22,393 nucleotides of DNA from an uncultured virus (IMG/VR IMGVR_UViG_3300021976_000009) (taxonomy: Duplodnaviria > Heunggongvirae > Uroviricota > Caudoviricetes). The translations under genes and the position numbers were made by a program. Location of the stretch: the IMG/VR virus record IMGVR_UViG_3300021976_000009; one strand, 5' to 3'. Of the stretch, positions 646 to 20,275 are shown one piece after another; positions within the stretch are counted from its first letter, which is position 1; each line of letters begins with the position of its first letter. Under the pieces are notes generated by a model. The model made no database searches. It saw only the letters and a list, made by a program, of their open reading frames with translations, and was not told the origin of the DNA.

Positions 646-697
646 GCCAGGGACGGCAACCTTACCCGGCATGATGCCATTTCTATTAGAGAAAGTT
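646..697 (+). promoter_or_regulatory. Leader cassette: GGA-loop hairpin + TCTATTAGA + GAAAGTT
   Basis: GCC-AGGGAC-GGC (646-657); second small hairpin GGCA-TGA-TGCC; TCTATTAGA 682-690. Confidence 0.6.
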
Positions 698-717
698 CAA
701 TTACGGAGTTCAGTCTA

Positions 718-936
718 ATGCCTTTCGAGTTCACAGCCGCCGAAGTGAAAAGTTTCCAGATGAGTTACGACGAGTTCGAGCGGCTCATGATCGACACCGG
801 CATGGATGCCGATATGGTCGAGGCTCTCGTAATCTGGATGGGTATGGCCGATCAGCCTATGCTCAACATGGCCGAGATCATGCAGCGAATGGGTGGACTG
901 GTTTTTACTCAGCCTGACATCCAGATCATTGATTAA
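718..936 (+). CDS. Hypothetical protein (likely paralogue of next gene)
   Basis: GGAG before ATG 718; the 634 start in the ORF track runs through the leader cassette. Confidence 0.65.
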   Translation: MPFEFTAAEVKSFQMSYDEFERLMIDTGMDADMVEALVIWMGMADQPMLNMAEIMQRMGGLVFTQPDIQIID

Positions 937-946
937 GGAAAGTTAG

Positions 947-1159
947 ATGAAAAGTAACCTCTCGTTAGCTAATGACGTTGATCATCACCTGATCAAGTCC
1001 GTCTTCATGACGAAGGAAGAGGTGAACGCCCTCTTGAAAGAGGACGGCTTTACTGACACCACGCTCCAGTATTTCTGGCAGCGTCTCAACTATCCTGAGG
1101 GGAGTCCGGTTTCTATCTCGATCTTGATCCAAAACCTCGCCTCACTCGCCACGTTTTGA
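947..1159 (+). CDS. Hypothetical protein
   Basis: AAGGAAAG RBS-like element, tight packing. Confidence 0.7.
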   Translation: MKSNLSLANDVDHHLIKSVFMTKEEVNALLKEDGFTDTTLQYFWQRLNYPEGSPVSISILIQNLASLATF

Positions 1160-1171
1160 GTGAGCCTACCC

Positions 1172-1202
1172 GCCAGGGATGGCAAATCTACTAGAGAAAG
1201 TT
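1172..1202 (+). promoter_or_regulatory. Leader cassette: GGA-loop hairpin + TCTACTAGA + GAAAGTT
   Basis: GCC-AGGGAT-GGC-AAA-TCTACTAGA-GAAAGTT just before ATG 1206. Confidence 0.65.
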
Positions 1203-1205
1203 ACA

Positions 1206-1487
1206 ATGTACGTGAGAACTACAATGAGATTCGATCACAAGATGCAACATGCCCTGCATACTTACCTGATGGCAAATTTTCCCATCAGGTGCATGGCTCC
1301 GATTATCGCTGAGTACGGCGGTATCCTGGTCGAATACTCAATCGGAGAGGGCGGAAATTTCATCGTCCAGTATCGTTTCAAAGAGGAGGATATCTGCCTC
1401 TATTGGGGTATGGATATCAATTACGCTGCCATGATGCGTATCAAGGAGATTTGCACTCAGCACGGTTTCATGGTCAGCGACGTTTGA
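1206..1487 (+). CDS. Hypothetical protein (paralogue of 1657-1911)
   Basis: Start reassigned downstream of the leader; shares I.V.Y....E...F.VQY...E....LY...G[FY].V pattern. Confidence 0.7.
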   Translation: MYVRTTMRFDHKMQHALHTYLMANFPIRCMAPIIAEYGGILVEYSIGEGGNFIVQYRFKEEDICLYWGMDINYAAMMRIKEICTQHGFMVSDV

Positions 1488-1495
1488 CCTTACCC

Positions 1496-1527
1496 GCCAG
1501 GGACGGTTCCCTCTAACTGAGAAAGTT
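1496..1527 (+). promoter_or_regulatory. Leader cassette (degenerate palindrome)
   Basis: GCC-AGGGAC-GGT then TCTAACTGAGAAAGTT. Confidence 0.55.
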
Positions 1528-1533
1528 ACAGTT

Positions 1534-1611
1534 ATGCTGTTCAAAACCTGGGCCGTTATCATGACCGTTGCAATTATAGTTGCTACTATTTATTTAGGCA
1601 GCCAACTATAA
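1534..1611 (+). CDS. 25-aa single-TM peptide
   Basis: MLFKTWAVIMTVAIIVATIYLGSQL; fills the gap between two leader cassettes. Confidence 0.6.
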   Translation: MLFKTWAVIMTVAIIVATIYLGSQL

Positions 1612-1619
1612 GGTTATCC

Positions 1620-1649
1620 GCCAGGGATGGCAAATCTTCTAGAGAAAGT
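1620..1649 (+). promoter_or_regulatory. Leader cassette
   Basis: GCC-AGGGAT-GGC-AAATCTTCTAGAGAAAGT, near-identical to the 1172 copy. Confidence 0.65.
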
Positions 1650-1656
1650 AACTTTA

Positions 1657-1911
1657 ATGGGGGCATTGTACAAAGCACAGTTCGCTACACTGGAACAATT
1701 CCAGTTACATCGGAGCTTTGTCCGAGATGGATCGCGAGCACGTTATCACCTTACACAAGGTGCCCACACAATCGTTGTCTTCTATCGCAAGGATGAATGG
1801 TTTTTCCTGGTTCAATACCATGAGGAGAGCGGAGTCACACTTTACGTTCATACGGAGGAGTGCCGTTCTTACTGTGAGAAGATGATCAAAGCTAAGGGGT
1901 ACAATGTCTAA
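1657..1911 (+). CDS. Hypothetical protein (paralogue of 1206-1487)
   Basis: Start reassigned after the leader; shared motif pattern. Confidence 0.7.
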   Translation: MGALYKAQFATLEQFQLHRSFVRDGSRARYHLTQGAHTIVVFYRKDEWFFLVQYHEESGVTLYVHTEECRSYCEKMIKAKGYNV

Positions 1912-2104
1912 AATCATCGTGCCTCCCGGCTTCAAATTGATTGAGTGTCCGCAGTGTGGCGGATATGGCGGTGAGCCAGGAAGTAATTTCGGAGATTACG
2001 GCTGGCACAGTTGCTACAAATGCGGTGAATTAGGGATGATCATTGTTCTGGAAAGTTACGGAACGGAACCGGAGTTGCCTTTGGAACCGGAACCCCTCTC
2101 TTGA
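1904..2104 (+). CDS. Small DnaJ-type zinc-finger protein
   Basis: CPQCGGYG ... CYKCGELG (CxxCxGxG-like). Confidence 0.7.
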   Translation: MSKIIVPPGFKLIECPQCGGYGGEPGSNFGDYGWHSCYKCGELGMIIVLESYGTEPELPLEPEPLS

Positions 2105-2113
2105 GGAAATGCA

Positions 2114-2365
2114 GTGCCAAAGTCACGGAAACAACTCAAGGAAGAGTTTGCGGCGGAAATCTATCTTCAGGCTAGTTTCTTCAAAATGAAGACTACCGGC
2201 TCAGCTAAGATAGATGATCGAGCTAACGATGTTGCTAAGGATATCGGGCTCAATGCAATTGAGGTTCCTCTAGTAGATTTTCCCAATGCGGACGTTACCA
2301 CACGGTTCATTCCGGAGCGTGAAAAATGGCCAAAGATGAAGATAACCCGTTCGGGGAAGAAATAG
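2114..2365 (+). CDS. Hypothetical protein
   Basis: GAGGAA upstream of GTG; fills gap. Confidence 0.55.
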   Translation: MPKSRKQLKEEFAAEIYLQASFFKMKTTGSAKIDDRANDVAKDIGLNAIEVPLVDFPNADVTTRFIPEREKWPKMKITRSGKK

Positions 2366-2673
2366 TTCTCGGCGGAACTATTCTCGAACAACTCTTCGGA
2401 AAGAATTTCAAACACTTCACGCTACAATATATGCCTAGCGTGAAAAGGCGACCTCAACACGAGGAGGATTGGGGAGACGAGGATACTCGCGGAGTTTGCG
2501 TGAAAAAGCGTATCACTCACATCCAATCTGATGGGGTGCAGTTCGGACGCTACTTAGGCAACATCAAAGGGAGATATTGGATCGGTACTTTCGAGGCCGA
2601 CTCCATTACTCCCGGCGACGCTATTAGTTTCAGTAGCGTTGCAGAAATGAAAGTTGAATGGCTTCTTGACTGA
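2326..2673 (+). CDS. Hypothetical protein
   Basis: GGAG upstream; 115-aa ORF on the coding strand. Confidence 0.65.
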   Translation: MAKDEDNPFGEEIVLGGTILEQLFGKNFKHFTLQYMPSVKRRPQHEEDWGDEDTRGVCVKKRITHIQSDGVQFGRYLGNIKGRYWIGTFEADSITPGDAISFSSVAEMKVEWLLD

Positions 2674-2674
2674 A

Positions 2675-2704
2675 GTGCAGTGCAGTGCAGTGCAGTGCAG
2701 TGCA
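2675..2704. repeat. Pentanucleotide microsatellite (GTGCA)6
   Basis: Six perfect copies directly upstream of the helicase. Confidence 0.95.
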
Positions 2705-2750
2705 AGTTTCGCTACTAGAGTTTCTAAACGAGTACCGGAGATACGGTCAG

Positions 2751-4304
2751 ATGCACAATGCGACGCCGCAACAGTTCGATTTCTATCGCTGGTTAGATCA
2801 GGGCCAGGGCAATGCAGTCCTGGAAGCGGTTGCCGGGAGTGGCAAGACCACTTCCATTATCGAGGGTCTCAACTACATTGATGACGTGGAGCCGGTCCTG
2901 CTTTGCTCGTTCACGAAGTTGATTGCAACGGAATTGCAACGTCGTGCCCAGGAAGCCAATTTCAGAAACGTTACGTCGACAACGCTTAACGCCCTCGGGT
3001 GGGGCGTGTGTCGGCGGAACGTGTCCGGAGTCCAGTTAGATCAGTACAAGACGGAGAATATTCTCCAGTGGCAGATTGATAATCAGCAGCGGTATTCCGG
3101 GTTAGACCCCAAGAAAATCTTTCAAAGCTTGAGGGGTCCAGTTAAGAAATTGGTGGGCTTGCTGAAAGCCTACGTTGTCACAGGAAACATCATTGAGCGT
3201 GCCGAGGAAATCGCCGCTTATCATAGTGTAGACTTGCCGGAGGGCAATACGAAAGAGGCTCAGTTCGCTCGTGAAACTCTATACGAGAAAGTGGTCTCCG
3301 TTTACCTCCAGAGCAACGAAGTCACGTCCATGATGGACTATGACGACATGAAGTTCATGCCCGTGTACTATAAGTGGGATGTTCCCAAGTACAAATGGGT
3401 GATCGTCGATGAGGTCCAGGATGTCAATGCATGTGATATCGCATTGATCGAGAAGTTGCATATGGCAGGTCGTGCTCGGGTCGTAGGAGTGGGCGACCGC
3501 ATGCAGGCCATCTATCTGTTCAGGGGAGCACTGAACGATGCGATGGAGATTTTCCAGAAACAGTTCGATGCCGTCCAAATGCCACTTACGGTATGTTGGC
3601 GATGCCCAGCCGCCATCATTGAGGAAGGAAAGAAAACCAACCCCGCCATTGAAGGTCCTGTCCCCAATCCCAAAGGTGATGGGATCGTCCGTACCGTTGA
3701 GACTCTTGAGTTTCTGGAGCAGGTTCGTATCGGCGACTTTGTTATCTGCCGCACTACTGCTCCTCTTGTTAAGCGGTGTCTCAAGTTGGTTCAGAATGGA
3801 ATCCCCGCCAAGGTTAAGGGACGAGAGGTGGGACGATCTCTTCTGGCCGTGATCGACAAGGTGATCGGGAGGATGCCAAAGTTCGATGGAGCAGCTAATG
3901 CTTCTCTATTAGAGTTCGTTGCGGAGCTAAGTAACTATAAGGTGGAAACGGTCGCCAATCTAGAGGCAATGAAACGTGAAGACTCGGCGATCCGTGTACA
4001 GGACGAATGCGAAGCACTGGAATACTTCTGCATGGAAGCGTATAACGTTGACGGAGTTGCGAACCGGATTAATACTCTGTTTACGGACGATCAGGACGAC
4101 GCTGCCATTGTATTGTTCCTCACGGGCCACAAGTGTAAGGGTCTACAAAATCCGAGGGTATGGTTCCTGCGACCAGACCTTTGCCCGCATCCGAAGGCTG
4201 CACAGCCACATGAGCAGGATCAGGAAATCCATATCCGCCACATCATCGTGACACGAGCGGAAAAGGAACTGGTCTTCGTGAACAAGGAAAAGGATGAAAA
4301 GTAA
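2751..4304 (+). CDS. UvrD/Rep-family superfamily 1 DNA helicase
   Basis: AVAGSGKTT (Walker A), IVDEVQD (II), VGDRMQAIYLFRGA (III), WRCP (IV), HKCKGLQ (V), VTRAEKEL (VI); ATG 2751 follows GGAG (in-frame GTG at 2685/2700 possible). Confidence 0.93.
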   Translation: MHNATPQQFDFYRWLDQGQGNAVLEAVAGSGKTTSIIEGLNYIDDVEPVLLCSFTKLIATELQRRAQEANFRNVTSTTLNALGWGVCRRNVSGVQLDQYKTENILQWQIDNQQRYSGLDPKKIFQSLRGPVKKLVGLLKAYVVTGNIIERAEEIAAYHSVDLPEGNTKEAQFARETLYEKVVSVYLQSNEVTSMMDYDDMKFMPVYYKWDVPKYKWVIVDEVQDVNACDIALIEKLHMAGRARVVGVGDRMQAIYLFRGALNDAMEIFQKQFDAVQMPLTVCWRCPAAIIEEGKKTNPAIEGPVPNPKGDGIVRTVETLEFLEQVRIGDFVICRTTAPLVKRCLKLVQNGIPAKVKGREVGRSLLAVIDKVIGRMPKFDGAANASLLEFVAELSNYKVETVANLEAMKREDSAIRVQDECEALEYFCMEAYNVDGVANRINTLFTDDQDDAAIVLFLTGHKCKGLQNPRVWFLRPDLCPHPKAAQPHEQDQEIHIRHIIVTRAEKELVFVNKEKDEK

Positions 4305-4324
4305 CTGAGTCCCGCGACGGCCCA

Positions 4325-4358
4325 GGCTCAGGGATGAGCCAATTCTATTAGAGAAAGT
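4325..4358 (+). promoter_or_regulatory. Leader cassette: GGA-loop hairpin + TCTATTAGA + GAAAGT
   Basis: GGCTC-AGGGAT-GAGCC-AAT-TCTATTAGA-GAAAGT. Confidence 0.7.
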
Positions 4359-4367
4359 GAGAATGAA

Positions 4368-4613
4368 ATGGAAAATCGAGTTTACATGATCAAGTTACAT
4401 GACGAGTTAGCGGTCCTAGTTAACGAAGGGAAAATTACAGTCAGTCACGCCTATATTATTTGCCGTCTCCCACCTGAGAAGCAGATCGAGTTTAAAAGCC
4501 AGTTATTAGCTATGGCTGTGAAGTTCAAGGAAGTTCAGGCCGAGTCCGCATTGTTAGAGGAGTGTGTACGCACGTTAGTTGATGATTCTCACCGACTAGG
4601 GAAAGTTGAATAA
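4368..4613 (+). CDS. Small protein resembling the ParB/Spo0J central DNA-binding region
   Basis: LHDELAVLVNEGKITVSHAYIICRLPPEKQ resembles ParB LP.EV...L..G.IS.GHA..L..L....Q. Confidence 0.55.
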   Translation: MENRVYMIKLHDELAVLVNEGKITVSHAYIICRLPPEKQIEFKSQLLAMAVKFKEVQAESALLEECVRTLVDDSHRLGKVE

Positions 4614-4918
4614 TGCAAGCTGCATATTGCCATTACATTCTCATGGAAGAGGAGGGCATTGACCTTGAGCAAAATTTTCATATTCCTGCCCTGATCGCTT
4701 TACACAGGGAAGAACTGTTCACAGATGAAAAGGACAAGGAAATCCTTTCCGCGATCAAAGCAAATCCGGAGGGCGGCATAATAGTCGTTCAGCCGGGTAT
4801 ACAGGTTCGTTGGTTCACTATGCCAGCTCACACAAACGTGAAGGAAGCTAAGTATAACTATCCTCGTTTCACGCTAATGGTTGAAGACGAGGGAGCAAAG
4901 AAATCAAAACTCTATTAG
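4613..4918 (+). CDS. Hypothetical protein
   Basis: TAATG coupling to previous gene. Confidence 0.7.
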   Translation: MQAAYCHYILMEEEGIDLEQNFHIPALIALHREELFTDEKDKEILSAIKANPEGGIIVVQPGIQVRWFTMPAHTNVKEAKYNYPRFTLMVEDEGAKKSKLY

Positions 4919-4938
4919 ATAATGCCGGAGGATTACAA

Positions 4939-5205
4939 ATGCTTATGAAAGACGCTCGAAATGAGGATATCGGTTGGGCTGCCCTTGTTATCTTTACTTA
5001 CGGAGCACAATTACGTTTCGGTATTGTACGTAATGTTTACGGATTGGATTGTTGTGATGTAATTATGCCAACAGGAGATGGCATTACTACTGAAATCCGC
5101 TGTAACTCTAAACAAGTGATGCGTATCAGGGATGCTCAAGTTCCAAATGATCAATGTGATAGTGTATTCGCGTTAAGGAGGCAGTTGATGGAGAAATTAA
5201 TCTAG
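4939..5205 (+). CDS. Hypothetical protein
   Basis: GGAGGA RBS. Confidence 0.7.
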   Translation: MLMKDARNEDIGWAALVIFTYGAQLRFGIVRNVYGLDCCDVIMPTGDGITTEIRCNSKQVMRIRDAQVPNDQCDSVFALRRQLMEKLI

Positions 5206-5217
5206 GGAGGGGAATTG

Positions 5218-5466
5218 ATGGACGATGTAGTCCGATTTGCGACAGTAACCAAGAGGGTTATGATCGAACTTGCGACGAGGCTAATTGACAGAGGGTGTTC
5301 TTTCAAAGACGGAGTGCTTTTCGATGGCGATGAGCCCGTCTTATTTGCAACCAAGGCTGAGACTGATCGCTTATACTTTATCGAGTTTACGGACAGTTCA
5401 AGGTTCTATTGGGTCGGAAACGGAAGTCCGCTCCCAACTCTAGGAGAATTTTACAGCGATGACTGA
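5218..5466 (+). CDS. Hypothetical protein
   Basis: GGGAGGGG RBS. Confidence 0.7.
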   Translation: MDDVVRFATVTKRVMIELATRLIDRGCSFKDGVLFDGDEPVLFATKAETDRLYFIEFTDSSRFYWVGNGSPLPTLGEFYSDD

Positions 5467-5476
5467 CCAGTACAAA

Positions 5477-5626
5477 ATGAGTGAAACGATTAAAGAGATC
5501 GCTAGAGAAAAGAAATGGAGCGATGAAGACCTTCTTGAAAGGCTTCTCGTCGCCATTGATGAACTTGATGCGACTCTGACACCGGAGCAATCTCATCAAG
5601 TTATCGACTTTCTAGAGGAGAATTGA
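5477..5626 (+). CDS. 49-aa acidic hypothetical protein (not in ORF track)
   Basis: MSETIKEIAREKKWSDEDLLERLL...; fills the gap. Confidence 0.6.
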   Translation: MSETIKEIAREKKWSDEDLLERLLVAIDELDATLTPEQSHQVIDFLEEN

Positions 5627-5627
5627 A

Positions 5628-5870
5628 GTGAATAAAACTTTTATTGGAACAGTTACGCCAGCTTTGCAAATGAAATTGATGATTCAAGCAGCACAAACAT
5701 ACAACAAACCGATTAGAGTAACTAGGGACGGAGACAAAGCGACTTATCGAGTTGACGATTTACGTGGTGATACTTATGTCACCACGTTTGATGGAGTAAA
5801 TCGTATGATCATGGATGAATTACTGAGTCATTTACGCTGCCCAATTGACTCTATTAGAATAGAGGAATAG
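5628..5870 (+). CDS. Hypothetical protein
   Basis: GAGGAG RBS, GTG start. Confidence 0.7.
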   Translation: MNKTFIGTVTPALQMKLMIQAAQTYNKPIRVTRDGDKATYRVDDLRGDTYVTTFDGVNRMIMDELLSHLRCPIDSIRIEE

Positions 5871-5874
5871 GAGA

Positions 5875-5938
5875 TGTCCAGCCGGGTGGGCAAGGAACGG
5901 GGCGCTACCTTGTGGAGGTTCGATTCCTCCCTGGACAG
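5875..5938 (+). ncRNA. tRNA-like RNA lacking D-stem and canonical anticodon loop
   Basis: Acceptor TGTCCAG/CTGGACA; T-arm GGAGG-TTCGATT-CCTCC; central stem CAAGG/CCTTG with 12-nt loop. Confidence 0.7.
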
Positions 5939-5939
5939 A

Positions 5940-6010
5940 TGCCCGGATAATGGTATATAACGTACTTCTCATGAGAGTACGTTAGGAAGGTTCGATTCCT
6001 TCCCGGGCAA
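5940..6010 (+). ncRNA. tRNA-like RNA with CAT anticodon-type loop, no D-stem, extended anticodon stem
   Basis: Acceptor TGCCCGG/CCGGGCA; T-arm GAAGG-TTCGATT-CCTTC; AATGGTA D-loop remnant; stem TAACGTACT/AGTACGTTA, loop CTCATGA; no encoded CCA. Confidence 0.75.
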
Positions 6011-6011
6011 A

Positions 6012-6201
6012 TTAGTCCCGCTTTTACACTCCACAGTGAGCAGGTTGCATGGGTAAACGGGGCTAAGCTAGGACTGGACATGCAAACCTAGGTATCTTGG
6101 ATTGGCGTCAGGTGATCGTACATATATCCAAGAGCCGAATAACTAACGACACCAGATCAGTAGTCGATTATGAAGCTCAGCAATCGACATTGATCACTGT
6201 G
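6012..6201 (+). ncRNA. Putative structured ncRNA with pseudoknots
   Basis: No good + strand ORF; stems 6012-20/6058-66, 6068-72/6087-91, 6095-102/6126-33, 6163-69/6182-88; crossing pairings 6045-51/6079-85 and 6032-39/6194-201. Confidence 0.5.
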
Positions 6202-6234
6202 CTCAGGGATGAGCAATAGAGCAAATCTAATAGA
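6200..6234 (+). promoter_or_regulatory. Leader cassette: GGA-loop hairpin + TCTAATAGA
   Basis: TGCTC-AGGGAT-GAGCA; TCTAATAGA 6226-6234. Confidence 0.65.
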
Positions 6235-6282
6235 AAATGGCCGCGTAGCGGCAATAGAAAATGGCCGCGTAGCGGCAATAGA
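6229..6282. repeat. 24-bp tandem duplication with GCCGC-GTA-GCGGC hairpin
   Basis: AATAGAAAATGGCCGCGTAGCGGC x2 plus AATAGA. Confidence 0.95.
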
Positions 6283-6297
6283 GAAAGTGAGAATGTT

Positions 6298-6534
6298 ATG
6301 GGTCGTAAGAAGCATAGTGAAAAGTTCATTATCAAGGTTCAGATTTCTCTTAATCCTCCTGATGGGAGTGTCTGTCTCATTTATAATGAGGATAAGAGTG
6401 TGCATGATCAAATGCCAACGCCTAGAGAGTTGCCATTACTTTTACGTGGTCGCAAGAAAGGTTATTTCTGGGCAACCAGGACACCTGATGGCGTTGTAAC
6501 GATTGTTAATGGTGCTCGTGATCAGGAGTGGTAA
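6298..6534 (+). CDS. Hypothetical protein
   Basis: Follows GAGAAAGTGAG leader. Confidence 0.7.
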   Translation: MGRKKHSEKFIIKVQISLNPPDGSVCLIYNEDKSVHDQMPTPRELPLLLRGRKKGYFWATRTPDGVVTIVNGARDQEW

Positions 6535-6535
6535 G

Positions 6536-6769
6536 ATGATACACCTTATCACAACCAAAGAAAATGGTGAAAAAATATTCAAACGGCTAGAAAAACTGGG
6601 CTGTATCCGTCACCTAAATGCTAATACTTTTCGTGATCATGATGGTCACTTGGTGCTTCGTATCAATCCGATATCTGACGGGTATCGGTTAGAGTTGCAT
6701 GAAACAGAATCTGTCTATTGGAAAGATAATAATTATCCGCTTATAAGGAAAAGAGATGAAAATCTTTGA
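6536..6769 (+). CDS. Hypothetical protein
   Basis: AGGAG before ATG 6536. Confidence 0.65.
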   Translation: MIHLITTKENGEKIFKRLEKLGCIRHLNANTFRDHDGHLVLRINPISDGYRLELHETESVYWKDNNYPLIRKRDENL

Positions 6770-7037
6770 TGGCATTGACGAAGAAGAAGGGGTAGCTAAC
6801 GGGTTAACTTGCAGTCTTCTATTGAAAATCGGATCACGAGAATATGGCGTTAATGCCGTTGCAATTAACGATTTTCAATTTGAATCTCTAATAGCAAATT
6901 TTCCATTAACGATTCTCAGGCGAAGTTACTATTATAAAGGAGCTTTGTTATCTGAAAAGAAAATCCATGTTGATATGGACCAAGGACATATAGTTCAATT
7001 TGAACTTCCTGACGATGATCGTGAGAAAATAAAATGA
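6756..7037 (+). CDS. Hypothetical protein
   Basis: AAGGA RBS, overlap coupling. Confidence 0.65.
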   Translation: MKIFDGIDEEEGVANGLTCSLLLKIGSREYGVNAVAINDFQFESLIANFPLTILRRSYYYKGALLSEKKIHVDMDQGHIVQFELPDDDREKIK

Positions 7038-7417
7038 CGAAAGTTGAACAGTTTCATTTTCAGCGACGAATGTTCGCATTGCCCTATAACATCATTAAGC
7101 TTGCTCCTAAAGGAGATTTACGTTCCCACGCCGAATGGTTATGGGACGAACTTCACTTTGACAGATCATGCTTGAGAGGATTCATTGATCCAACCGGATT
7201 ATATTTTTACCGTACCAAGGATTGCAAAGCTCTCAAAGGAGATTGGGAAAGGGTCAAGTGTGCCATAATAATCTTGATAGTGAGTGGTCAATTGGATATT
7301 GATCCATTATTACCAGTTTACTCGGGAATGATTCCCGGGAAGCATGGGGAACGATGGGAACCTCGACATAAGCTCGGGGTTATACGTAGTCTTATCCCAA
7401 TGGTAGAACTACTATGA
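7034..7417 (+). CDS. Hypothetical protein
   Basis: ATGA overlap. Confidence 0.7.
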   Translation: MTKVEQFHFQRRMFALPYNIIKLAPKGDLRSHAEWLWDELHFDRSCLRGFIDPTGLYFYRTKDCKALKGDWERVKCAIIILIVSGQLDIDPLLPVYSGMIPGKHGERWEPRHKLGVIRSLIPMVELL

Positions 7418-7650
7418 TCAGGACGTATGTCGGTAGAGTGAACAACCGCCGAGTTGAAATTCGTGGAGAAACTCTAATAGACGCAATGGAGCGAGCAGGA
7501 TATATTCCTCGCACTAAAGCAACTAGCACGGGACGTATCCTGGGCATATTGTCAACGGGACAGCGATACACTTTCAGGATCGCACCCGATAGCAGTTTTC
7601 ATAAGCCAGTTACCAATGACAAACATCCATCTCAGGATCATGACCGATGA
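7414..7650 (+). CDS. Hypothetical protein
   Basis: ATGA overlap. Confidence 0.65.
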   Translation: MIRTYVGRVNNRRVEIRGETLIDAMERAGYIPRTKATSTGRILGILSTGQRYTFRIAPDSSFHKPVTNDKHPSQDHDR

Positions 7651-7817
7651 AAATTTTAGTTTCACCTGATTTGTTAATGGAACTCGCAACTCAAGTAAAC
7701 GAATTTGATCGAGAGTTTGCTATCGAAATGCGATATATCGCAGTTATTGTTAATGTTCAAGGAATCTGTAAAGTGCAACGGCCTAACGGTATGCTTCTTA
7801 TTTACTATAAGGAATAA
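7647..7817 (+). CDS. 56-aa hypothetical protein (not in ORF track)
   Basis: ATGA overlap; MKILVSPDLLMELATQ...YYKE. Confidence 0.6.
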   Translation: MKILVSPDLLMELATQVNEFDREFAIEMRYIAVIVNVQGICKVQRPNGMLLIYYKE

Positions 7818-7820
7818 ATA

Positions 7821-8051
7821 ATGAAAATTAATCCCGCACAGTTGCATTTTATTGGATGGCGTATTCGGCCCAGTTACGTCAATCAATTACTCATTGATTC
7901 TATTAGAGAAGAGGGTCAACGAGTACCAATTAGAGTTAGACCGAAAGGAAAAAGTTATGTATTTAATGATGGCATGTGTCGAGTGGCCACATGCATCATT
8001 CTCGGGATTGATGTTGAGTGCATACTAATTGACAATGATCAGCTTCTATGA
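7821..8051 (+). CDS. Stand-alone ParB N-terminal (ParBc/Srx-like) domain protein
   Basis: LIDSIREEGQRVPIRVR....Y...DGMCRV....LG matches ParBc L..SI...G...PI.V......Y...DG..R......LG. Confidence 0.7.
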   Translation: MKINPAQLHFIGWRIRPSYVNQLLIDSIREEGQRVPIRVRPKGKSYVFNDGMCRVATCIILGIDVECILIDNDQLL

Positions 8052-8682
8052 AAGGATAGTTCCAGTGAACGCTTTTGACGTTTTAGCAGTGAAAAAGTAT
8101 GAGCCAAATTACGCCATCCGCTATAAAGTGGGCGGCAATCCAATGATCATGGGAGAAGATAAGATTATATGGTCCTTAACGGACAAATATTTCAAAGTCG
8201 TTGAATCCTCTCTCGCACGTAAGTACGGAGATTGGGAAGCGATGATGCCTTCCGATGCTCATTATCTTCTCGTTGCAGCGGCCAAAGCAGGCCAAGGTTA
8301 CTTAGAATTCATGGGTCGTGAGATCATGATCATGACCCCGGTGGATGGCGTCAACCTAATGCCACATCAAGTAAAGGATAATGCAGCAAAGCCGGTAACT
8401 CGTTCTCCCGTTACCCGCACTACGTTAAGATCAGCGGGCCAAGTTGCGGAAGCACTTGGCAAAGCAATTGAAGGCTACTTACCAATTGACAAAATTAAAG
8501 CGGATGCTGCTCTAAAAGAGTTGATCTGGATTGCTAAAAATGTTTCCTGGGAGAGTAAAGCGAATAGACATTTATTCGAGTCGAGGGGGACCGATGAACG
8601 TCAGGAACGAACGGCTTCAGGCAATCGAGAACCTGAAGGTAGCGAAGGTGGTGGGAATCCCCCACCTGATAAGCCATTGTGA
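8035..8682 (+). CDS. Hypothetical protein
   Basis: 215-aa ORF. Confidence 0.7.
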   Translation: MISFYERIVPVNAFDVLAVKKYEPNYAIRYKVGGNPMIMGEDKIIWSLTDKYFKVVESSLARKYGDWEAMMPSDAHYLLVAAAKAGQGYLEFMGREIMIMTPVDGVNLMPHQVKDNAAKPVTRSPVTRTTLRSAGQVAEALGKAIEGYLPIDKIKADAALKELIWIAKNVSWESKANRHLFESRGTDERQERTASGNREPEGSEGGGNPPPDKPL

Positions 8683-8782
8683 TGGTATTCTGTCGGCTCT
8701 TATTGCCGAGGAAGAAGTAAGCCATGTTCAACTTAACCGAACGAACGTTGATCTTCGGAGGGAAAACCCTTCCCATAGTTAA
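8594..8782 (+). CDS. Hypothetical protein
   Basis: GAGGGGG before ATG 8594; overlaps both neighbours. Confidence 0.4.
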   Translation: MNVRNERLQAIENLKVAKVVGIPHLISHCDGILSALIAEEEVSHVQLNRTNVDLRRENPSHS

Positions 8783-8942
8783 GTGGGAAGTTTGGTTCAT
8801 GACCCCTTTTGGGCTCATCGCTGATTTGCAGGAGGCGAATCAGCGATGTATAGACAACGATATGAATCCTAATCAGGTCGTCTCCCCGGTGCCTGTTGCA
8901 TTGGACAGTGACGAACGTTACGAAGTTATCTTACGAGGATGA
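8724..8942 (+). CDS. Hypothetical protein
   Basis: GAGGAAG upstream. Confidence 0.65.
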   Translation: MFNLTERTLIFGGKTLPIVKWEVWFMTPFGLIADLQEANQRCIDNDMNPNQVVSPVPVALDSDERYEVILRG

Positions 8943-8943
8943 A

Positions 8944-9294
8944 ATGGGTCCGGAATATACCAAGGGTACACCTACTTTAAGAGAGAAACTCAATATCATG
9001 TTAGATGATGTTGAGATTACTCCGGAACAAAAAGCTATCATTATCGGGAGGATAATGGGCCTTACCCGTCCAGGGACGAATGACATTGTTCATCAGATCG
9101 GTCCCAATGGATTCCATCGGTTAGTAATCAGTGGAGAGAAATCTCCCTGGTCTCCTCAAACAGATATCATCAGGGTGGGTGATATCGTAGCATCGACCGA
9201 TGCATACATTAACCTACTTCCACAGGTAGGTAGGGTGTACGCTTTCAAAGGAAAAGATTTCCGAACAGAATCTGTCCAAACTCTAATAGACTAA
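8944..9294 (+). CDS. Hypothetical protein
   Basis: GAGGA before ATG 8944. Confidence 0.65.
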   Translation: MGPEYTKGTPTLREKLNIMLDDVEITPEQKAIIIGRIMGLTRPGTNDIVHQIGPNGFHRLVISGEKSPWSPQTDIIRVGDIVASTDAYINLLPQVGRVYAFKGKDFRTESVQTLID

Positions 9295-9312
9295 GGGACA
9301 AGGGAGCGTAAT

Positions 9313-9618
9313 ATGGAAGTTCCGGATAAGTTACTTGAGATGGCAGTGAAAGCTTATGGCGAGAGTGTACGCCAAACATGGAAACAGGGCGGTCGGAAAC
9401 CGAAACTCTATAAGAAAACCCAGGAGCAAAAGATAGTCGACAAGACCGTGCTGACTACATACCTGGATATTCTTTCCAGAGTATTTGATGTCACAGGAGG
9501 ATTATTCACTTTGATGGAGATGGCGGAAAAATCGAAAATTATCAATGAATCCGGAAAGCATTGCGACGATCCTTATCCGGTTGAAATGGACAAACTTATA
9601 GTGAAAGGGAAAGGCTAA
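9313..9618 (+). CDS. Hypothetical protein
   Basis: AGGGAG RBS. Confidence 0.7.
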   Translation: MEVPDKLLEMAVKAYGESVRQTWKQGGRKPKLYKKTQEQKIVDKTVLTTYLDILSRVFDVTGGLFTLMEMAEKSKIINESGKHCDDPYPVEMDKLIVKGKG

Positions 9619-10688
9619 TGGCCAGTCGCCGTAGTTTCCTCATGCTTGCTCACACTTACAGTCCGAAGAAACACAAAGTGAAAGGTTGGTACGCTTCAGA
9701 AAAATTGGATGGGATTAGGGCACTCTGGGACGGAGGTATTAGTCGTGGCTTACTCAAAACCGAAGTACCCTTTGCCAATCATGAAAAGGACTCTCGGTTT
9801 GTCCGACCACCAATTGCTACTGGCCTCTGGAGTCGTTACGGTAATATTATCCATGCTCCTGATTGGTTTCTTGACCAATTGCCAGATTATCCTCTCGATG
9901 GGGAATTATTTAGTGACCGTCGATCTTGGCAAACCCTCAGTACAGTGGTCAAACGAATCGTCCCCGATGAAACCGCCTGGAAAGCGGTAAGTTATAACGT
10001 GTTTAATCTGCCCAATTACAGTATGATTTTTCAAACGGGATTGATCAATGATCCAAATTTCGTTAAAAACTTTATTCATGATGACCTTTATCGGTGGGCG
10101 ATGACACGAACCAAAACACTGCCACGATATATGGCCTTTAAACAGGTTGTCCCTACTCTATTAGATTTGTTCAGAGACCATTCGATCATCAAACCGATAG
10201 TGCAAACTCCTATCATTGATGAGGAAGATATTACCCTTCGGTTACGAGATGTTCTTGCTCTTGGCGGCGAAGGGATTATGCTAGCCGATCCCAATTCATA
10301 TTGGGAAGCGAAACGTTCTCATCATCTTGTGAAAGTCAAACCCGAGAATGATGATGAAGCTATCGTCACAGGGTATGTTTGGGGAAGGCAAACTGACAAG
10401 GGCTCGAAGCTTCTTGGCATGATGGGTGCTCTAGTAACGGATTACAAAGGGAAACGTTTCGAGCTTTCCGGATTTACCGATAATGAAAGGAAAATGTGTT
10501 ACAAAGAACTTAAGATCGGTGGACATGATCATGCCTACGTAAATGGATGTGCTCATCCTGGCGAGGATGTTGATAATGCATTTCACAACCCAGAGTTTCC
10601 AATTGGAACAGTAATCAGTTTCAAGTATAGAGAACTCAGTGATGACGGTTTGCCCAAAGAAGGGCGTTACTGGAGAAAGCGAAACTGA
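9618..10688 (+). CDS. lig: ATP-dependent DNA ligase (minimal adenylation + OB fold)
   Basis: SEKLDGIR (motif I), LDGELF (III), EGIML (IV), VKVKP (V), C-terminal OB fold. Confidence 0.93.
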   Translation: MASRRSFLMLAHTYSPKKHKVKGWYASEKLDGIRALWDGGISRGLLKTEVPFANHEKDSRFVRPPIATGLWSRYGNIIHAPDWFLDQLPDYPLDGELFSDRRSWQTLSTVVKRIVPDETAWKAVSYNVFNLPNYSMIFQTGLINDPNFVKNFIHDDLYRWAMTRTKTLPRYMAFKQVVPTLLDLFRDHSIIKPIVQTPIIDEEDITLRLRDVLALGGEGIMLADPNSYWEAKRSHHLVKVKPENDDEAIVTGYVWGRQTDKGSKLLGMMGALVTDYKGKRFELSGFTDNERKMCYKELKIGGHDHAYVNGCAHPGEDVDNAFHNPEFPIGTVISFKYRELSDDGLPKEGRYWRKRN

Positions 10689-10897
10689 TGAAGGAAAAAG
10701 GAAAGTGCAATCACATTTATCAGGAAATGCGGCTTTTACTTCCTTTGATTCCAATAGATGGACAACCTATGGAAATATGCTATAAATGTTATCAGCGTGA
10801 AATGTTTTTAAGGGAACGTTATTTTCCGAAAAGTGAACGACCAAAGTGGCACGAGCTTCCTCTATTAGAGAAAGGAAAGGAAAATGAAAGCGATTGA
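10688..10897 (+). CDS. Small Zn-binding hypothetical protein
   Basis: CNH...CYKC; TGATG coupling. Confidence 0.6.
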   Translation: MKEKGKCNHIYQEMRLLLPLIPIDGQPMEICYKCYQREMFLRERYFPKSERPKWHELPLLEKGKENESD

Positions 10898-11324
10898 TAA
10901 TTGGCAGGATTTGGAGTGGTATGGCATCTTTCGTCTAACAGGAGAAGCCTGTCCATTCGGTATGCGACAGTTATGCGATTTGACAGAAAAGGGTGCCATT
11001 ATCATTCGGAGCTTTTTCGGATTAGCTCCGGATGCCAAGTTTCAAGCCAATTGGAATAGTGGAGCAAGTTGTTCCACTATGATTCCTATCAGTTTGCTTG
11101 ATGATCTGAAAGTGTTTTGTCTCTTCTCCGATGGAGCAGCCAAGGTCCTATTACTTAAGGATGGTAGTGCATTTGGCTATTATCCCGAGGATACTGAACA
11201 GGATTATCTTGATCATTGGCGTATACTAATGGCCGGAGGTTCGTTAGAGCGCGATTACGTTCCAACAGCGGGACCACGCTTAGGAACAAGAATGATTCAC
11301 GGGATGTCCGGGAGGTCAGAATGA
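10884..11324 (+). CDS. Hypothetical protein
   Basis: TCTATTAGA-GAAAGGAAAGGA leader; LTGEAC..MR.LCDL. Confidence 0.75.
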   Translation: MKAIDNWQDLEWYGIFRLTGEACPFGMRQLCDLTEKGAIIIRSFFGLAPDAKFQANWNSGASCSTMIPISLLDDLKVFCLFSDGAAKVLLLKDGSAFGYYPEDTEQDYLDHWRILMAGGSLERDYVPTAGPRLGTRMIHGMSGRSE

Positions 11325-11482
11325 ACGCTTTAATGTTTGGTCTCGTTCTCGGTACCGGATTTATAATTGGTTGGTTGGCAAGAATTTATGGAGAAATACG
11401 AGAACGTGATGCAAAATCTATTAGAGAAGAGGATGACGCTTACCAGAACGAATTACCCATGGACCAAGAGGACTTTTACTAA
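11321..11482 (+). CDS. Small single-TM protein
   Basis: GGAGG RBS, ATGA overlap; MNALMFGLVLGTGFIIGWLA. Confidence 0.65.
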   Translation: MNALMFGLVLGTGFIIGWLARIYGEIRERDAKSIREEDDAYQNELPMDQEDFY

Positions 11483-11673
11483 TGCGTGAGAGCTTGGAAC
11501 AATTCATCGTGAAAGAAGCAACCACATTGCTCAAGGAAACAGAAAGCTATGATGATGCCCTGCTCTATGCCGAGGATATCGTTAATGATGCGGTAAAGAA
11601 ATTTCCTGGCCCCCTCAAAGAGTCCATCGAGAAGATGGTAGTTGAGGAACTTAAGAAACAGGCAATGCGATGA
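11482..11673 (+). CDS. Hypothetical protein
   Basis: TAATG coupling. Confidence 0.7.
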   Translation: MRESLEQFIVKEATTLLKETESYDDALLYAEDIVNDAVKKFPGPLKESIEKMVVEELKKQAMR

Positions 11674-11840
11674 AAGATATTGAAGAATATCTTCGTGAGA
11701 AAATCGCTGCCCTTGTCTATGAGGAAGAGTACGCTCAAACTCAGAAAGAAATTCTTGATGAGGCTATTGTACTCTTTCCTGATCGAACTGATACCGTCTA
11801 TTTATTGTATCAAACGATAGTGGAGGAACTAACAGCATGA
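11670..11840 (+). CDS. 56-aa acidic hypothetical protein (not in ORF track)
   Basis: ATGA overlaps at both ends. Confidence 0.7.
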   Translation: MKDIEEYLREKIAALVYEEEYAQTQKEILDEAIVLFPDRTDTVYLLYQTIVEELTA

Positions 11841-12838
11841 GGATACCTACATACCTTTCGCCAAGTGCCATTGCAAAATGGGAAACTTCGGTGGAGGGAT
11901 TCTATCTCCATTATTTAACGGATAATCCACCACCAAGGGAGCAACAAAATCAGGCGATGGCGATTGGATCATCCTTCGATGCCTATGTCAAAGCCTTTTT
12001 GCATGAGAAGTTGTTCGGCAAAAGTCACACTGACTCTAATAGATTCGGATTACGTGCGTTGCTTGAGGCTCAAGTGGAGCCGCAACATCGCGATTGGGCA
12101 AAACGCCACGGATTGTACGCTTTCCAGGTATATCAATCTTCCGGAGCACTGTTAGATTTACTTTCGGACCTTCAGGCGGCTCAAAAGGAACCACGTTTTG
12201 AATTTGAAGTAAAGGGACAGGTTGACGGCTATCGTGAAGGTGTTATGAAGGAGATGGAGGGCGTCATCTTCCTTGGCAAACCTGATGCCGCCTATATCAA
12301 TCGGGATGGGAAACATATCATCCTGGATTGGAAAGTGAATGGGTATTGTTCAAATTACGCTACGTCACCTAAGCCTGGATATGTTCGTCTCCGTGGTATG
12401 GGTGGTCGCAGTTGGGGAATGCACAAAGGCTGTTCTCCAATGGAAATTGGCGGAATCACTGTCAATATCGCCTCGACTTTGGAGCATTGTGATGAGGGAT
12501 GGGCTCGGCAACTTGCCATCTATGGTTGGCTTTGCGATGAGCCCGTTGGAAGTGATTTCATCGTAGCCATTGATCAATTGAGTTGTAAGCCTTCCGGAAT
12601 GGCTGACATTCCTCCGGAGATCAGGGTAGCGGAACATCGTATACGTATTGGAAAAGAGTATCAATTCAAGGTGTTCAATAGAGCAAAAGAAATCTGGTCC
12701 ATTATTAAAAGTGGACATATTTTCAGACAGATGAGTGAGGGAGATTCCAAGGCACGTTGTCAGTTACTAGATCAACAGGCCGAAGAACTTTACGGCCCTA
12801 ACGCCGATAGTGATTTCCTGGAAATGACTCGGCGATAA
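11837..12838 (+). CDS. PD-(D/E)XK (RecB/Cas4-like) exonuclease
   Basis: YLSPS, GSSFD, GKPD...IILDWK, QLAIY motifs. Confidence 0.85.
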   Translation: MRIPTYLSPSAIAKWETSVEGFYLHYLTDNPPPREQQNQAMAIGSSFDAYVKAFLHEKLFGKSHTDSNRFGLRALLEAQVEPQHRDWAKRHGLYAFQVYQSSGALLDLLSDLQAAQKEPRFEFEVKGQVDGYREGVMKEMEGVIFLGKPDAAYINRDGKHIILDWKVNGYCSNYATSPKPGYVRLRGMGGRSWGMHKGCSPMEIGGITVNIASTLEHCDEGWARQLAIYGWLCDEPVGSDFIVAIDQLSCKPSGMADIPPEIRVAEHRIRIGKEYQFKVFNRAKEIWSIIKSGHIFRQMSEGDSKARCQLLDQQAEELYGPNADSDFLEMTRR

Positions 12839-12846
12839 ATATAGGG

Positions 12847-12870
12847 ACAACATTCAGTATTGGGTGTTGT
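12847..12870 (+). other. Intergenic hairpin
   Basis: ACAACATTCA-GTAT-TGGGTGTTGT (with G-U pairs) just before a TCTATTAGA. Confidence 0.45.
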
Positions 12871-12896
12871 AAATCTATTAGAGAAGGGGAAATCAG

Positions 12897-13304
12897 TTGA
12901 AGAAGTTCGTACTGTTCGTGTTGGCATTGGTGATCATGGGAGCTTCGGCGGAGGCCGGATGTGGCGAACGTCAGGCCAAGAGGCTCGCTAGGAAGCAGGC
13001 TAAGCTCATGGCCAAGATGAGCGTTGGCGGTGGTTGCTATGGTGGCGGGGGAGCAGCTTTCTCCTACCACTCCGAAGCCGCAACGGTTCCGGTAGCGGTA
13101 GCAGCTCCCTGTGCAACGGCCAGCTATTCGGCTGAGTCCTACTCCTACCAGAGCCAGAGCAATGGGTTCGCTACCGTGCAGGTGGCTCCCGGTCCCGGCC
13201 CCGGGCCAATGCCATCGCCACAGAGTGGTCCGCCGCCAGTGATTCAAACACCTCCGGTGCCATTGAAGTCAATGCCCCCTGTTCCGTCTAAGCAGGGCGG
13301 TTAA
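12897..13304 (+). CDS. Secreted low-complexity protein (signal peptide, Gly/Ala/Ser-rich middle, Pro-rich tail)
   Basis: MKKFVLFVLALVIMGASAEA signal peptide with AxA site; TTG start after AAGGGG. Confidence 0.75.
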   Translation: MKKFVLFVLALVIMGASAEAGCGERQAKRLARKQAKLMAKMSVGGGCYGGGGAAFSYHSEAATVPVAVAAPCATASYSAESYSYQSQSNGFATVQVAPGPGPGPMPSPQSGPPPVIQTPPVPLKSMPPVPSKQGG

Positions 13305-13314
13305 CACATTCCCA

Positions 13315-13330
13315 GGGCCACGGATGGCCC
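13315..13330 (+). promoter_or_regulatory. GGA-loop hairpin (CsrA-type site)
   Basis: GGGCC-ACGGAT-GGCCC upstream of AAAGGA RBS; TCTAATAGA at 13361. Confidence 0.6.
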
Positions 13331-13627: not shown

Positions 13628-14011
13628 ATGCCGATGAAACTTGCCACCGTTTACAAAATCACTCACAACAGATATAGTTTCATGGCTGAGTGTAAGCCCT
13701 ATGGTGCCGTTGGCACTACTGAAATGGAAGCATTGGCAAATCTCCAGGAGCTTTTGGATTTTCCAGGTGATGATAATCAGGATATTCCGCCAGATGATAC
13801 CGTTTGTCCGGAGTTCATCAGCTTCATACAAAGACAGATTTGGTTTGCCGCCTATCAAGTTGACGATTTGGAGCAAGCTACTTACCTAGAAGATACGCTC
13901 TTATCTGAGGTTCTTCATGAGATCGCTCGTAATCCCTCGGTTAATCCGAAGGAACTGGCGGAGTTGGTGTTGAAAACTAAGCGGTGGTCATTCAAGAGGC
14001 TACGACTCTAA
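13628..14011 (+). CDS. Protein with HicB-antitoxin-like N-terminal region
   Basis: FMAEC....AVGTTEMEALANLQELL resembles HicB G.T.EEAL.NL.E.L. Confidence 0.5.
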   Translation: MPMKLATVYKITHNRYSFMAECKPYGAVGTTEMEALANLQELLDFPGDDNQDIPPDDTVCPEFISFIQRQIWFAAYQVDDLEQATYLEDTLLSEVLHEIARNPSVNPKELAELVLKTKRWSFKRLRL

Positions 14012-14421
14012 TGGAGAATGATGACATGACAGGACGTGAAGGCGAAATCGTCACCCGAGAGATCGAAGATGGCCAATGGGAAGCCCATCTCAAGGACAAT
14101 CGGGATGATCTTTGGTTGGGTGCCACCGAGCAAGAAGCTCGTGAGAAGGCATTGAAAAACTCCATTGAGAAAAAGATCAGTAATCCCAATGATCCGGCAC
14201 CTGTGGTGACTCAAAAGATCGAGGCCAGGGTCAATCGGCTTATTGCCAAGGAACTGAAATCGACCATCGTTCATGGTGGCGTGGCCTGTACTCACGTTGC
14301 CTATCGGGAAGACAATCCCGAAGTGCAACATTACGGACAGGATGTCACGTCAGCGAAAAAAGCCTTTTTAGAGGCCGAGCGTCAAGCTGAGATCGACGCC
14401 CCAATCTTCAAAAACCCATGA
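14011..14421 (+). CDS. Protein with two HicB-like repeats
   Basis: EDGQWEAHLKD......GATEQEAREKA and HVAYREDNPEVQHYGQDVTSAKKA. Confidence 0.5.
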   Translation: MENDDMTGREGEIVTREIEDGQWEAHLKDNRDDLWLGATEQEAREKALKNSIEKKISNPNDPAPVVTQKIEARVNRLIAKELKSTIVHGGVACTHVAYREDNPEVQHYGQDVTSAKKAFLEAERQAEIDAPIFKNP

Positions 14422-19532: not shown

Positions 19533-19536
19533 CCTG

Positions 19537-19573
19537 AAAGGGAGCAAACTCTATTAGAGTTTGCTCCCTTTTT
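19537..19573 (+). terminator. Intrinsic terminator centred on TCTATTAGA
   Basis: AAAGGGAGCAAACTCTA-T-TAGAGTTTGCTCCCTTTTT. Confidence 0.8.
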
Positions 19574-19602
19574 GACGTTCCCATAGCTTGAAAGGACAGG
19601 AA

Positions 19603-20059: not shown

Positions 20060-20100
20060 AAGCCCGCCATTTGCACACGCGAATGGCGGGCTTATTTTAT
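20060..20100 (+). terminator. Intrinsic terminator ending the gene run
   Basis: AAGCCCGCCATT...AATGGCGGGCTT then ATTTTAT. Confidence 0.85.
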
Positions 20101-20275
20101 GTTACTTTTTACCCTGGATTCGAGGGCGTTAGAACACAGTTTAATCTAATAGAGTTTCTTGCGTCCGCGTAGCTGTAATAGAATCTCTTGTACTTTGCTT
20201 CTTAGTAGCTTAGCGTGTTTTGCGAAACGCCGTAAATCACGATCTCAAAAAAGGCATTTAGCAGCATATATTTGG

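Follow-up and report, generated by a model that had tools for sequence, protein, structure and literature searches.

A repeated leader hairpin that fits the CsrA/Rsm recognition rule in the early region of an uncultured soil phage

What reads a hairpin that stands, with one kind of loop on differing stems, ahead of seven small genes of a phage? The question is posed by a 22,393-nucleotide (nt) stretch of DNA from an uncultured Caudoviricetes virus (IMG/VR record IMGVR_UViG_3300021976_000009). This whole stretch, called the window here, comes from an uncultured soil phage, of which it covers the early and replication region, and every gene in it lies on the + strand. An earlier note had pointed to seven intergenic hairpins with the loop ANGGAY closed by a C-G pair, and had proposed that they place early genes under the control of a host or phage CsrA. 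All seven were found where that note had placed them, on the coding strand and between genes. We tentatively prefer the reading that they are CsrA-type translational operators in a portable early-gene leader, with a confidence that falls somewhat short of even.

Four of the seven hairpins share one stem type, GCC/GGC or GCC/GGT. They are GCC AGGGAC GGC at 646-657 (8 nt past the stop codon of the open reading frame, ORF, 362-637; 23.9 bits), GCC AGGGAT GGC at 1172-1183 (12 nt past the stop of ORF 947-1159; 24.8 bits), GCC AGGGAC GGT with an outer G-U pair at 1496-1507 (8 nt past the stop at 1487; 16.6 bits) and GCC AGGGAT GGC at 1620-1631 (8 nt past the stop of the 25-codon ORF 1534-1611; 25.0 bits). 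The remaining three are GGCTC AGGGAT GAGCC at 4325-4340 (20 nt past the stop of a helicase gene; 24.1 bits), TGCTC AGGGAT GAGCA at 6200-6215 (at the end of the non-coding stretch 5871-6297; 23.3 bits) and GGGCC ACGGAT GGCCC at 13315-13330 (10 nt past the stop at 13304; 25.6 bits). All are read on the + strand, and those that come after a gene lie 8-20 nt past its stop codon. The bit scores are those of R1, a covariance model built from 14 sites, namely these seven and seven more in relatives. When R1 was run on 136 kb of sequence from the phage family, no new member appeared above the training sites, the best non-member reaching 18.2 bits.

A hairpin that had been called related, GTGC AGGAG GCAC, is present at 276-288 on the + strand, just past a likely promoter and thus close to where the early transcript should begin. 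It is of a different family: with GGAG in its loop it falls outside the set defined by the core CANGGAYG, and R1 misses it.

The core CANGGAYG occurs 15 times in the window (14 on the + strand, one on the − strand) against 4.96 expected, and none of 100 shuffles reaches 15. By the ORF calls made in this analysis, half of the + strand cores (7/14) are intergenic, and all seven of these are flanked by at least two further pairs. Among the seven cores within ORFs, one (at 801) has such flanking pairs. As background we took 199 unrelated viral loci, 2.24 Mb with both strands counted. They contain 307 cores, of which 38 (12.4%) are stemmed in this way, a density of 0.17 per 10 kb of strand. Stemmed cores in the window number eight on the + strand and none on the − strand, with ~0.38 expected per strand. 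The Poisson chance of eight hairpins is ~1e-8, and the chance of seven in seven at 12.4% is ~5e-7.

Relatives were collected by scanning metagenome contigs with an alignment of helicase homologues, which yielded eight loci of the same phage family. Their helicases are identical to that of the window at 98% (L245, a fragment), 89% (L240, a fragment), 57% (L247), 54% (L241 and L243), 53% (L242), 50% (L251) and 46% (L244). Leader positions in four of these loci hold seven further hairpins (one each in L240, L245 and L247, four in L242), with loops AAGGAU, AAGGAC, ACGGAU or AGGGAU on stems GCC/GGC, GGCC/GGCC, AGCC/GGCU, UGGCC/GGCCA, GACUC/GAGUC and GGGAGCC/GGCUUCU. No such leader hairpin was found in L251, nor in G001, a 33.7-kb IMG/VR contig that contains a structural module and has a palindrome, described below, in common with the window.

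When the 14 sites are aligned without gaps, only the closing C and G, the A of the loop and GGA are the same throughout. The position after GGA is U in ten sites and C in four, and the position before it is G in seven, A in five and C in two. The free position of the loop is therefore exactly the N of ANGGA. CsrA/Rsm proteins bind at GGA, generally ANGGA, in the apical loops of hairpins in mRNA leaders, as the cited passages describe (PMC5207318). All 14 sites present GGA in the apical loop of a short hairpin. Judged by sequence, the hairpins fit this published rule with their short stem, C-G closing pair and A-N-GGA-Y loop in which N is free.

The stems change together with their partners. 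The three inner pairs are formed in 14 of 14 sites, a share that is biased upward because the sites were picked for having a stem. Two pairs show double changes, C-G to U-A and G-C to C-G, in three sequences each, the three CUC/GAG stems of this set including one orthologous pair. The covariation score reaches 0.437; shuffling the columns gives 0.170 (0/500 shuffles reach the observed score), and sliding the partners by 1-3 columns gives at most 0.130. At the orthologous site after the helicase gene, GGCTC/GAGCC in the window is replaced by GACTC/GAGTC in L245 around the same loop, with flanks ~79% identical; this is the cleanest single compensatory change. In a second orthologous pair, the hairpin at 13315 and that at 20452 of L242, the loop core and downstream leader are kept while stem length and N differ, the window leader being orthologous to L242 20445-20485. 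The claim that differing stems around a conserved loop amount to covariation thus holds across the 14 sites and in the orthologous pair after the helicase gene, and for the window by itself it draws on three stem types. Contigs from three DNA runs of two studies contained no sequence variants, so that no covariation could be read at the population level. In 13 of the 14 sites the hairpin is part of the minimum-free-energy fold of the isolated 18-nt segment.

Each hairpin belongs to a leader in which the stop codon is followed by the hairpin, then a palindrome of the TCTANTAGA type, then a ribosome site rich in purines and finally the start codon. The ribosome site is GAGAAAGT in the window and GGAG in the relatives. 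The earlier note had most hairpins followed by TCTANTAGA, GAAAGT and a start codon, which is right for GAGAAAGT in six of seven leaders. The exact TCTANTAGA is found in four (at 682, 1187, 4344 and 6226), two have a degenerate form, and the leader at 13315 has none. On the + strand, the palindrome TCTATTAGA overlaps GAGAAAGT at 682-696 in the leader of ORF 718-936, where a second hairpin, GGCATGATGCC, stands ahead of the palindrome, and again at 4344-4358, before a start codon at 4362 or 4368 of an ORF resembling the ParB helix-turn-helix (HTH). The palindrome TCTACTAGA overlaps GAGAAAGT at 1187-1201 (start codon 1206), as do the degenerate forms TCTAACTGA at 1512-1526 (start codon 1534) and TCTTCTAGA at 1635-1649 (start codon 1657). 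At 6226-6288, TCTAATAGA is followed by two 24-nt direct repeats and then CAATAGAGAAAGT, with the start codon at 6298. These direct repeats (6229-6276) form an insert between palindrome and ribosome site, and each contains a GCCGC GTA GCGGC hairpin. In L242 and L247 the palindrome position reads TCTAGGAGA, which supplies GGAG.

The start codon lies 32-39 nt past the core in five of the seven window leaders, and 70 and 94 nt past it in the two leaders with inserts; over the 14 sites the distance is 27-39 nt in 12. The AUG of the loop was considered as a start codon itself. In two leaders (1179 and 1627) it is in frame with the gene downstream, but at 4334 it meets a stop and at 6209 it is out of frame, so that it does not serve as a start in general. 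Beside three of the hairpins there is a CYTTACCC-like motif (662-669, 1164-1170 and 1488-1495), which also occurs about ten times in a tandem-like manner in the non-coding right end of the window (21120-21213), and in L243 at 1313-1325.

Within the first 6.3 kb of the window, the cassette is present in every intergenic gap of at least 45 nt, and the genes without it overlap or abut their upstream neighbour. The proteins encoded downstream of the 14 hairpins have no pairwise similarity at E 0.01. The idea of hairpin, palindrome and ribosome site as one portable unit was borne out in that the unit precedes unrelated genes. Directly past the helicase stop, hairpin and palindrome are found in the window, L245 and L240, and the interval from the helicase to the orthologue of ORF 4613 contains the ParB-HTH-like ORF in the window, an unrelated 67-residue ORF in L245 and no ORF in L240. 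With the same leader and differing gene content, the leader marks a junction of gene gain or loss.

Such junctions, together with the mutually dissimilar downstream genes, could also be expected if the leader were a cassette spread by recombination, its loops being alike mainly by descent and gene conversion and its copies acting as points of recombination where genes are shuffled, or if the hairpin had a role in structure only, such as stabilising processed messages or uncoupling translation. Four window copies are near-identical over ~30 nt, and L243 has a different hairpin in the same leader position, both of which suit a cassette. However, the loop is kept in L242 and L247, whose helicases are 53-57% identical to that of the window, despite altered palindrome and flanks, and compensatory changes in the stems leave the loop unchanged. 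A purely structural role is also hard to match with three-pair stems, which give little stability. We consider this explanation quite unlikely.

The palindrome is a subject of its own. The window has 33 copies of the sequence TCTANTAGA, many of them longer (CTCTAWTAGAG), where 0.32 would be expected; copies also lie inside coding sequence, and there in two reading frames. G001 has 29 copies, and L241, L242, L247 and even L244, with its 34% GC, have 14-19 each. ParB-like genes are found throughout the family, at 4368-4613 and 7821-8051 in the window and as two full-length genes in G001. The palindrome looks like a genome-wide DNA site for a ParB/KorB-like protein. One copy forms the loop and upper stem of a terminator-like hairpin at 19530-19575 (GGGAGCAAACTCTATTAGAGTTTGCTCCC, then a T run), after the second dUTPase-like gene.

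Near the left end, a likely early promoter on the + strand (TTGCAT, 17 nt, TGtTACAAT; 243-271) was read by eye and is under the threshold of a consensus scan. It is bracketed by a 39-nt inverted repeat, 95% complementary (167-205 and 303-341), with a palindrome copy in each arm. Three 26-bp direct repeats at 73-150 also have a palindrome copy each. The repeats at 73-341 suggest operator sites on both sides of the likely promoter.

Because the hairpin adjoins a palindrome that clearly acts genome-wide, and because ~30 nt ahead of the genes are conserved, the hairpin might itself be a DNA-level signal. It could be a promoter part for a phage or phage-modified RNA polymerase, including promoters of the N4 hairpin type, or a composite operator with the palindrome; L247 does encode a protein with sigma-70 region 4 (L247:5895-6569). 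Yet a sigma-70-like match (9/12) is present in only one of seven leaders, where it would start transcription inside the start codon, and promoter-like sites are not above shuffles (22 versus 24.4). The cassette gave no consistent match to a promoter of the sigma-70, sigma-54 or PeSL type (a cassette of T4-type phages, below). N4-type hairpin promoters have a stem of 5-7 bp and a 3-nt loop, and are read by the virion RNA polymerase. Here the loops are 4-6 nt and the stems 3-7 pairs, and no RNA polymerase domain was found in any protein of the sequence scanned, which is part of the genome.

The stems themselves also speak against a DNA-level signal. Their G-U pairs are present only as read on the + strand, which fits RNA in the sense direction, and are A-C mismatches on the opposite strand. 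Variable arms around a conserved asymmetric centre are unlike the target of a dimeric DNA binder. We regard a DNA-level signal as very unlikely. On the RNA side, the loop of a lambda-type boxB is GNRA-like. A GNRA tetraloop or boxB (nut) element was ruled out, since the relatives have AGGA and CGGA where the window has GGGA.

Returning to CsrA-type operators, a reader would have to be at hand. A CsrA-family protein of 57 residues, beginning MLVLTRK, is encoded in the relative L243 (L243:2731-2904). It matches the Pfam family CsrA (PF02599) with E 7e-5 over profile positions 1-50 of 53. Two relatives of this protein turned up when 1.84 billion representatives were searched exhaustively with HMMER. 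One of them, P0123, is 48% identical to it and scores 55 bits on PF02599, for which the cut-off is 27; by this score P0123 is a clear CsrA. A profile of the three proteins, searched against solved structures, had CsrA/RsmE chains as the top seven of its 15 matches, the best being 2jpp (E 0.0041). In the alignment, the N-terminal strand M-L-x-L-T-R-K and the C-terminal R..E match CsrA/RsmE. The AlphaFold2 (AF2) monomer has five strands at modest confidence (mean pLDDT, the predicted local distance difference test score, of 67.5). A word-indexed homologue search with the protein returned itself only, and a cluster look-up gave no link to the contig of the window.

The ribosome site of this L243 gene sits in a GAC ACGGAG GUC hairpin, which has the same design as the window hairpins. 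By homology, then, one member of the phage family has a divergent gene of the CsrA family, and the leader of that gene bears a hairpin to match. CsrA homologues encoded by phages are known, and their presence correlates with hosts that bear CsrA, according to the cited passages (PMC8450108).

Besides the bias in the count of formed pairs, several findings weigh against control by CsrA. First, no CsrA-family gene is among the 50 window proteins scanned (22.4 of ~84 kb) or in the 124 ORFs of L241, L242 and L247, nor is there one in G001, and a three-sequence CsrA profile run over 2437 six-frame ORFs of the family matched L243 only. The check for csrA in the phage thus came out negative for the window and these relatives and positive for one divergent family member. 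Second, the 23.2 bits of that member on PF02599 are under the curated cut-off of 27, and a single-sequence search of solved structures with it found no CsrA. Third, L243 lacks the TCTANTAGA palindrome, and its main intergenic hairpins are of another kind, with the loop UCAGACGARGG, while L241 (17.7 kb) and L244 (10.5 kb) carry the palindrome without such a hairpin.

Fourth, the window ribosome site GAGAAAGT contains no GGA. A second GGA within ~25 nt of the start codon is found in only three of seven window leaders and in five of seven leaders of the relatives, a feature that discriminates little, as ribosome sites often hold GGA. With few second GGAs near the window starts, the classical two-site clamp is not evident. 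Fifth, the three-pair stems are weak alone, at −4.3 to −5.9 kcal/mol in the 18-nt context, as expected for elements that need a protein. Finally, the closest helicases of cultured phages are ~31% identical and the best genome matches 32%, which gives no pointer to a host. The proposal that early genes are under CsrA control thus keeps the loop rule, the conservation, the stem covariation and the L243 gene on its side, and is left without a csrA gene in the window.

As for the other hairpins of L243, GC-rich six-pair stems at 1311-1373 and 2020-2075 covary (CCCCGG/CCGGGG versus CCCGGC/GCCGGG) around the conserved UCAGACGARGG. They are followed by TCTCTAAAGGAG and then the start codon.

A conserved loop on variable stems implies a sequence-specific reader, which could be a protein other than CsrA. 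The hairpins would then be operators or cleavage sites for a RegB-like ribonuclease of the early-to-middle switch, an NYN-type RNase or a phage translational repressor, and the likeness to CsrA sites would be coincidental. Their place between cistrons of an early operon, right after stop codons, would suit such sites, as would the failure to find csrA in the window or in the relatives that bear hairpins. NYN-domain ribonuclease genes stand beside a ribonucleotide reductase gene in all three long relatives (L241:2310-2795, L242:2829-3320 and L247:3494-4006), but L241 has its NYN gene and no hairpins.

The RegB protein of T4 targets GGAG. None of the 14 loops reads GGAG, Y following GGA in every one; of the other hairpins considered, only that at 276-288 and that in the leader of the csrA-like gene of L243 have GGAG in the loop. 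The hairpin is also upstream of the ribosome site, so that a cut would leave that site in place. Moreover, the kept and free positions of the loop fit ANGGA exactly. Another protein as the reader is, in our estimate, unlikely.

With a CsrA-type operator as the preferred reading, the following course can be conceived. The hairpins would be sense-strand RNA elements on early polycistronic messages, in which the short stem, closed by C-G, presents the A-N-GGA-Y loop in the shape that CsrA/Rsm-family proteins recognise. A CsrA-family dimer, coming from the host or from a phage copy like that of L243, would dock on the hairpin 27-39 nt ahead of the start codon. The docked dimer, alone or by bridging to the region of the ribosome site, would set the translation or stability of the following gene. 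We infer that the element acts as RNA, that a CsrA-family protein binds it and that translation is what it affects. On the sequence evidence, the hairpins probably tie the expression of seven small genes to a CsrA-like protein.

The earlier note had also offered a CsrA sponge. A sponge is weaker than control in cis, as there is one hairpin per leader at spacings of 124-2705 nt inside a coding polycistron, and no Rfam match. No Csr/Rsm RNA or other Rfam family was found at the gathering score or at E up to 5, and a permissive threshold gave noise and two T-arm-like matches only. The likeness to sponge RNAs of the CsrB/RsmZ type is that several GGA hairpins are on one highly transcribed RNA; unlike those, the window has no dense non-coding array.

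Among known systems, the targets of CsrA/RsmA/RsmE, for example the glgC leader and the RNA of RsmE complexes (PDB 2jpp), are the closest. In the passages cited they too have a short stem with ANGGA in its apical loop, placed before the ribosome site in a 5′ leader and read on the sense strand (PMC5207318). Unlike bacterial targets, the phage hairpin is repeated before unrelated small genes, in a portable leader with a DNA palindrome and a window ribosome site free of GGA, and for this phage a CsrA partner is conjectural.

The CsrA/RsmA homologues of phages described by Campa et al. (2021, PMC8450108) have their counterpart in the small CsrA-family protein of L243, which is far more divergent than those homologues and under the Pfam cut-off. 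In its cited passages, that paper describes the proteins and proposes host targets such as CRISPR-Cas, and those passages contain no operator hairpins on the phage's own messages.

Architectural analogues are the start-associated sequences (SAS) of Cluster K mycobacteriophages. As the cited passages have it, these are short and conserved, stand at the translation starts of some of the non-structural genes, all in one orientation, are preceded by an inverted repeat in about half of the cases and have a role thought to be translational (Pope et al. 2011, PMC3203893). Both have a conserved start-linked sequence and an inverted repeat. The extended SAS has conserved 17-bp arms around a variable spacer, whereas here the arms vary and the loop is conserved, and the sequences are unrelated (PMC3203893).

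The PeSL cassettes of T4-type phages are small regulatory repeats between non-essential early genes; according to the cited passages, they stand where close relatives differ by insertions, deletions and replacements (Arbiol et al. 2010, PMC2839356). The leaders here likewise mark insertion or deletion junctions between close relatives. However, a PeSL consists of a strong sigma-70 promoter and a terminator stem-loop (PMC2839356), neither of which the leaders have; tests for these parts gave the one 9/12 promoter-like match in seven leaders and one weak terminator-like call, at 4325. Full-text literature searches listed no paper on arrays of CsrA-type hairpins in phage leaders, in agreement with the statement that no phage element of this architecture has been described.

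The proteins of the window are mostly small ORFs without a known family, with a few recognisable ones. Scans for protein families identified, all on the + strand, a UvrD-type helicase (2751-4304), an ATP-dependent DNA ligase (9618-10688) and a PD-(D/E)XK nuclease (11837-12838), and the window also encodes a ThyX-like protein and two dUTPase-like proteins. A PHROGs search with 37 small proteins gave nothing informative. The longest record bearing the helicase has 84,393 bases, which makes the 22.4-kb window about a quarter of the genome. No DNA match to the window was found among 50,697 records of cultured phages, and a helicase peptide scan of IMG/VR found no relative. Three DNA-pattern scans of IMG/VR gave chance singletons or nothing, except L058/G001, which has the palindrome in common with the window, and L002, which is AT-rich and probably unrelated.

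Other observations concern the non-coding parts. At 5880-6010 there are two tRNA-like remnants with acceptor-like pairing and perfect T-arm hairpins GGTTCGATTCC (5914-5930 and 5986-6002). ARAGORN called no tRNA there, and Rfam gave weak T-arm matches only. Similar tRNA-like stretches lie in L247 gaps 13974-14107 and 20732-20822. Six tandem GTGCA copies (2675-2704) stand directly upstream of the helicase start at 2751, and assemblies from other runs break at this point. The right end, 20100-22393, is ~2.3 kb of apparently non-coding, repeat-rich DNA. At 21540-22140 there are ~60-nt units that bear the motifs GGTCGCCCAAA and CCAAACTTT. Short repeats of CCAAAGTG and CCAAATGG are found at 22140-22230, and a 16-nt unit, repeated in tandem at least eight times (22262-22393), runs off the end of the window. 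This right end may be a genome terminus or origin region.

We conceived further that this family of soil phages could run its own Csr-type post-transcriptional circuit by means of mobile operators, a possibility about which we are doubtful. The cassette would join a CsrA-type hairpin to the genome-wide palindrome, the latter probably read by a ParB-like protein, and would be copied before newly acquired early genes to bring them under both controls. The reader of the hairpins would be the host CsrA, hijacked or titrated in the course of takeover, or a divergent phage CsrA as in L243.

CsrA copies carried by phages are known and their targets are not; if the CsrA reading is true, the hairpins would be a concrete and testable set of such targets. 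It would also mean that, by copying a leader of 45 nt, a phage can place genes that it has newly acquired under post-transcriptional control. As the leaders mark gene gain and loss between close relatives, they are also relevant to the shuffling of small-gene regions in phage genomes.

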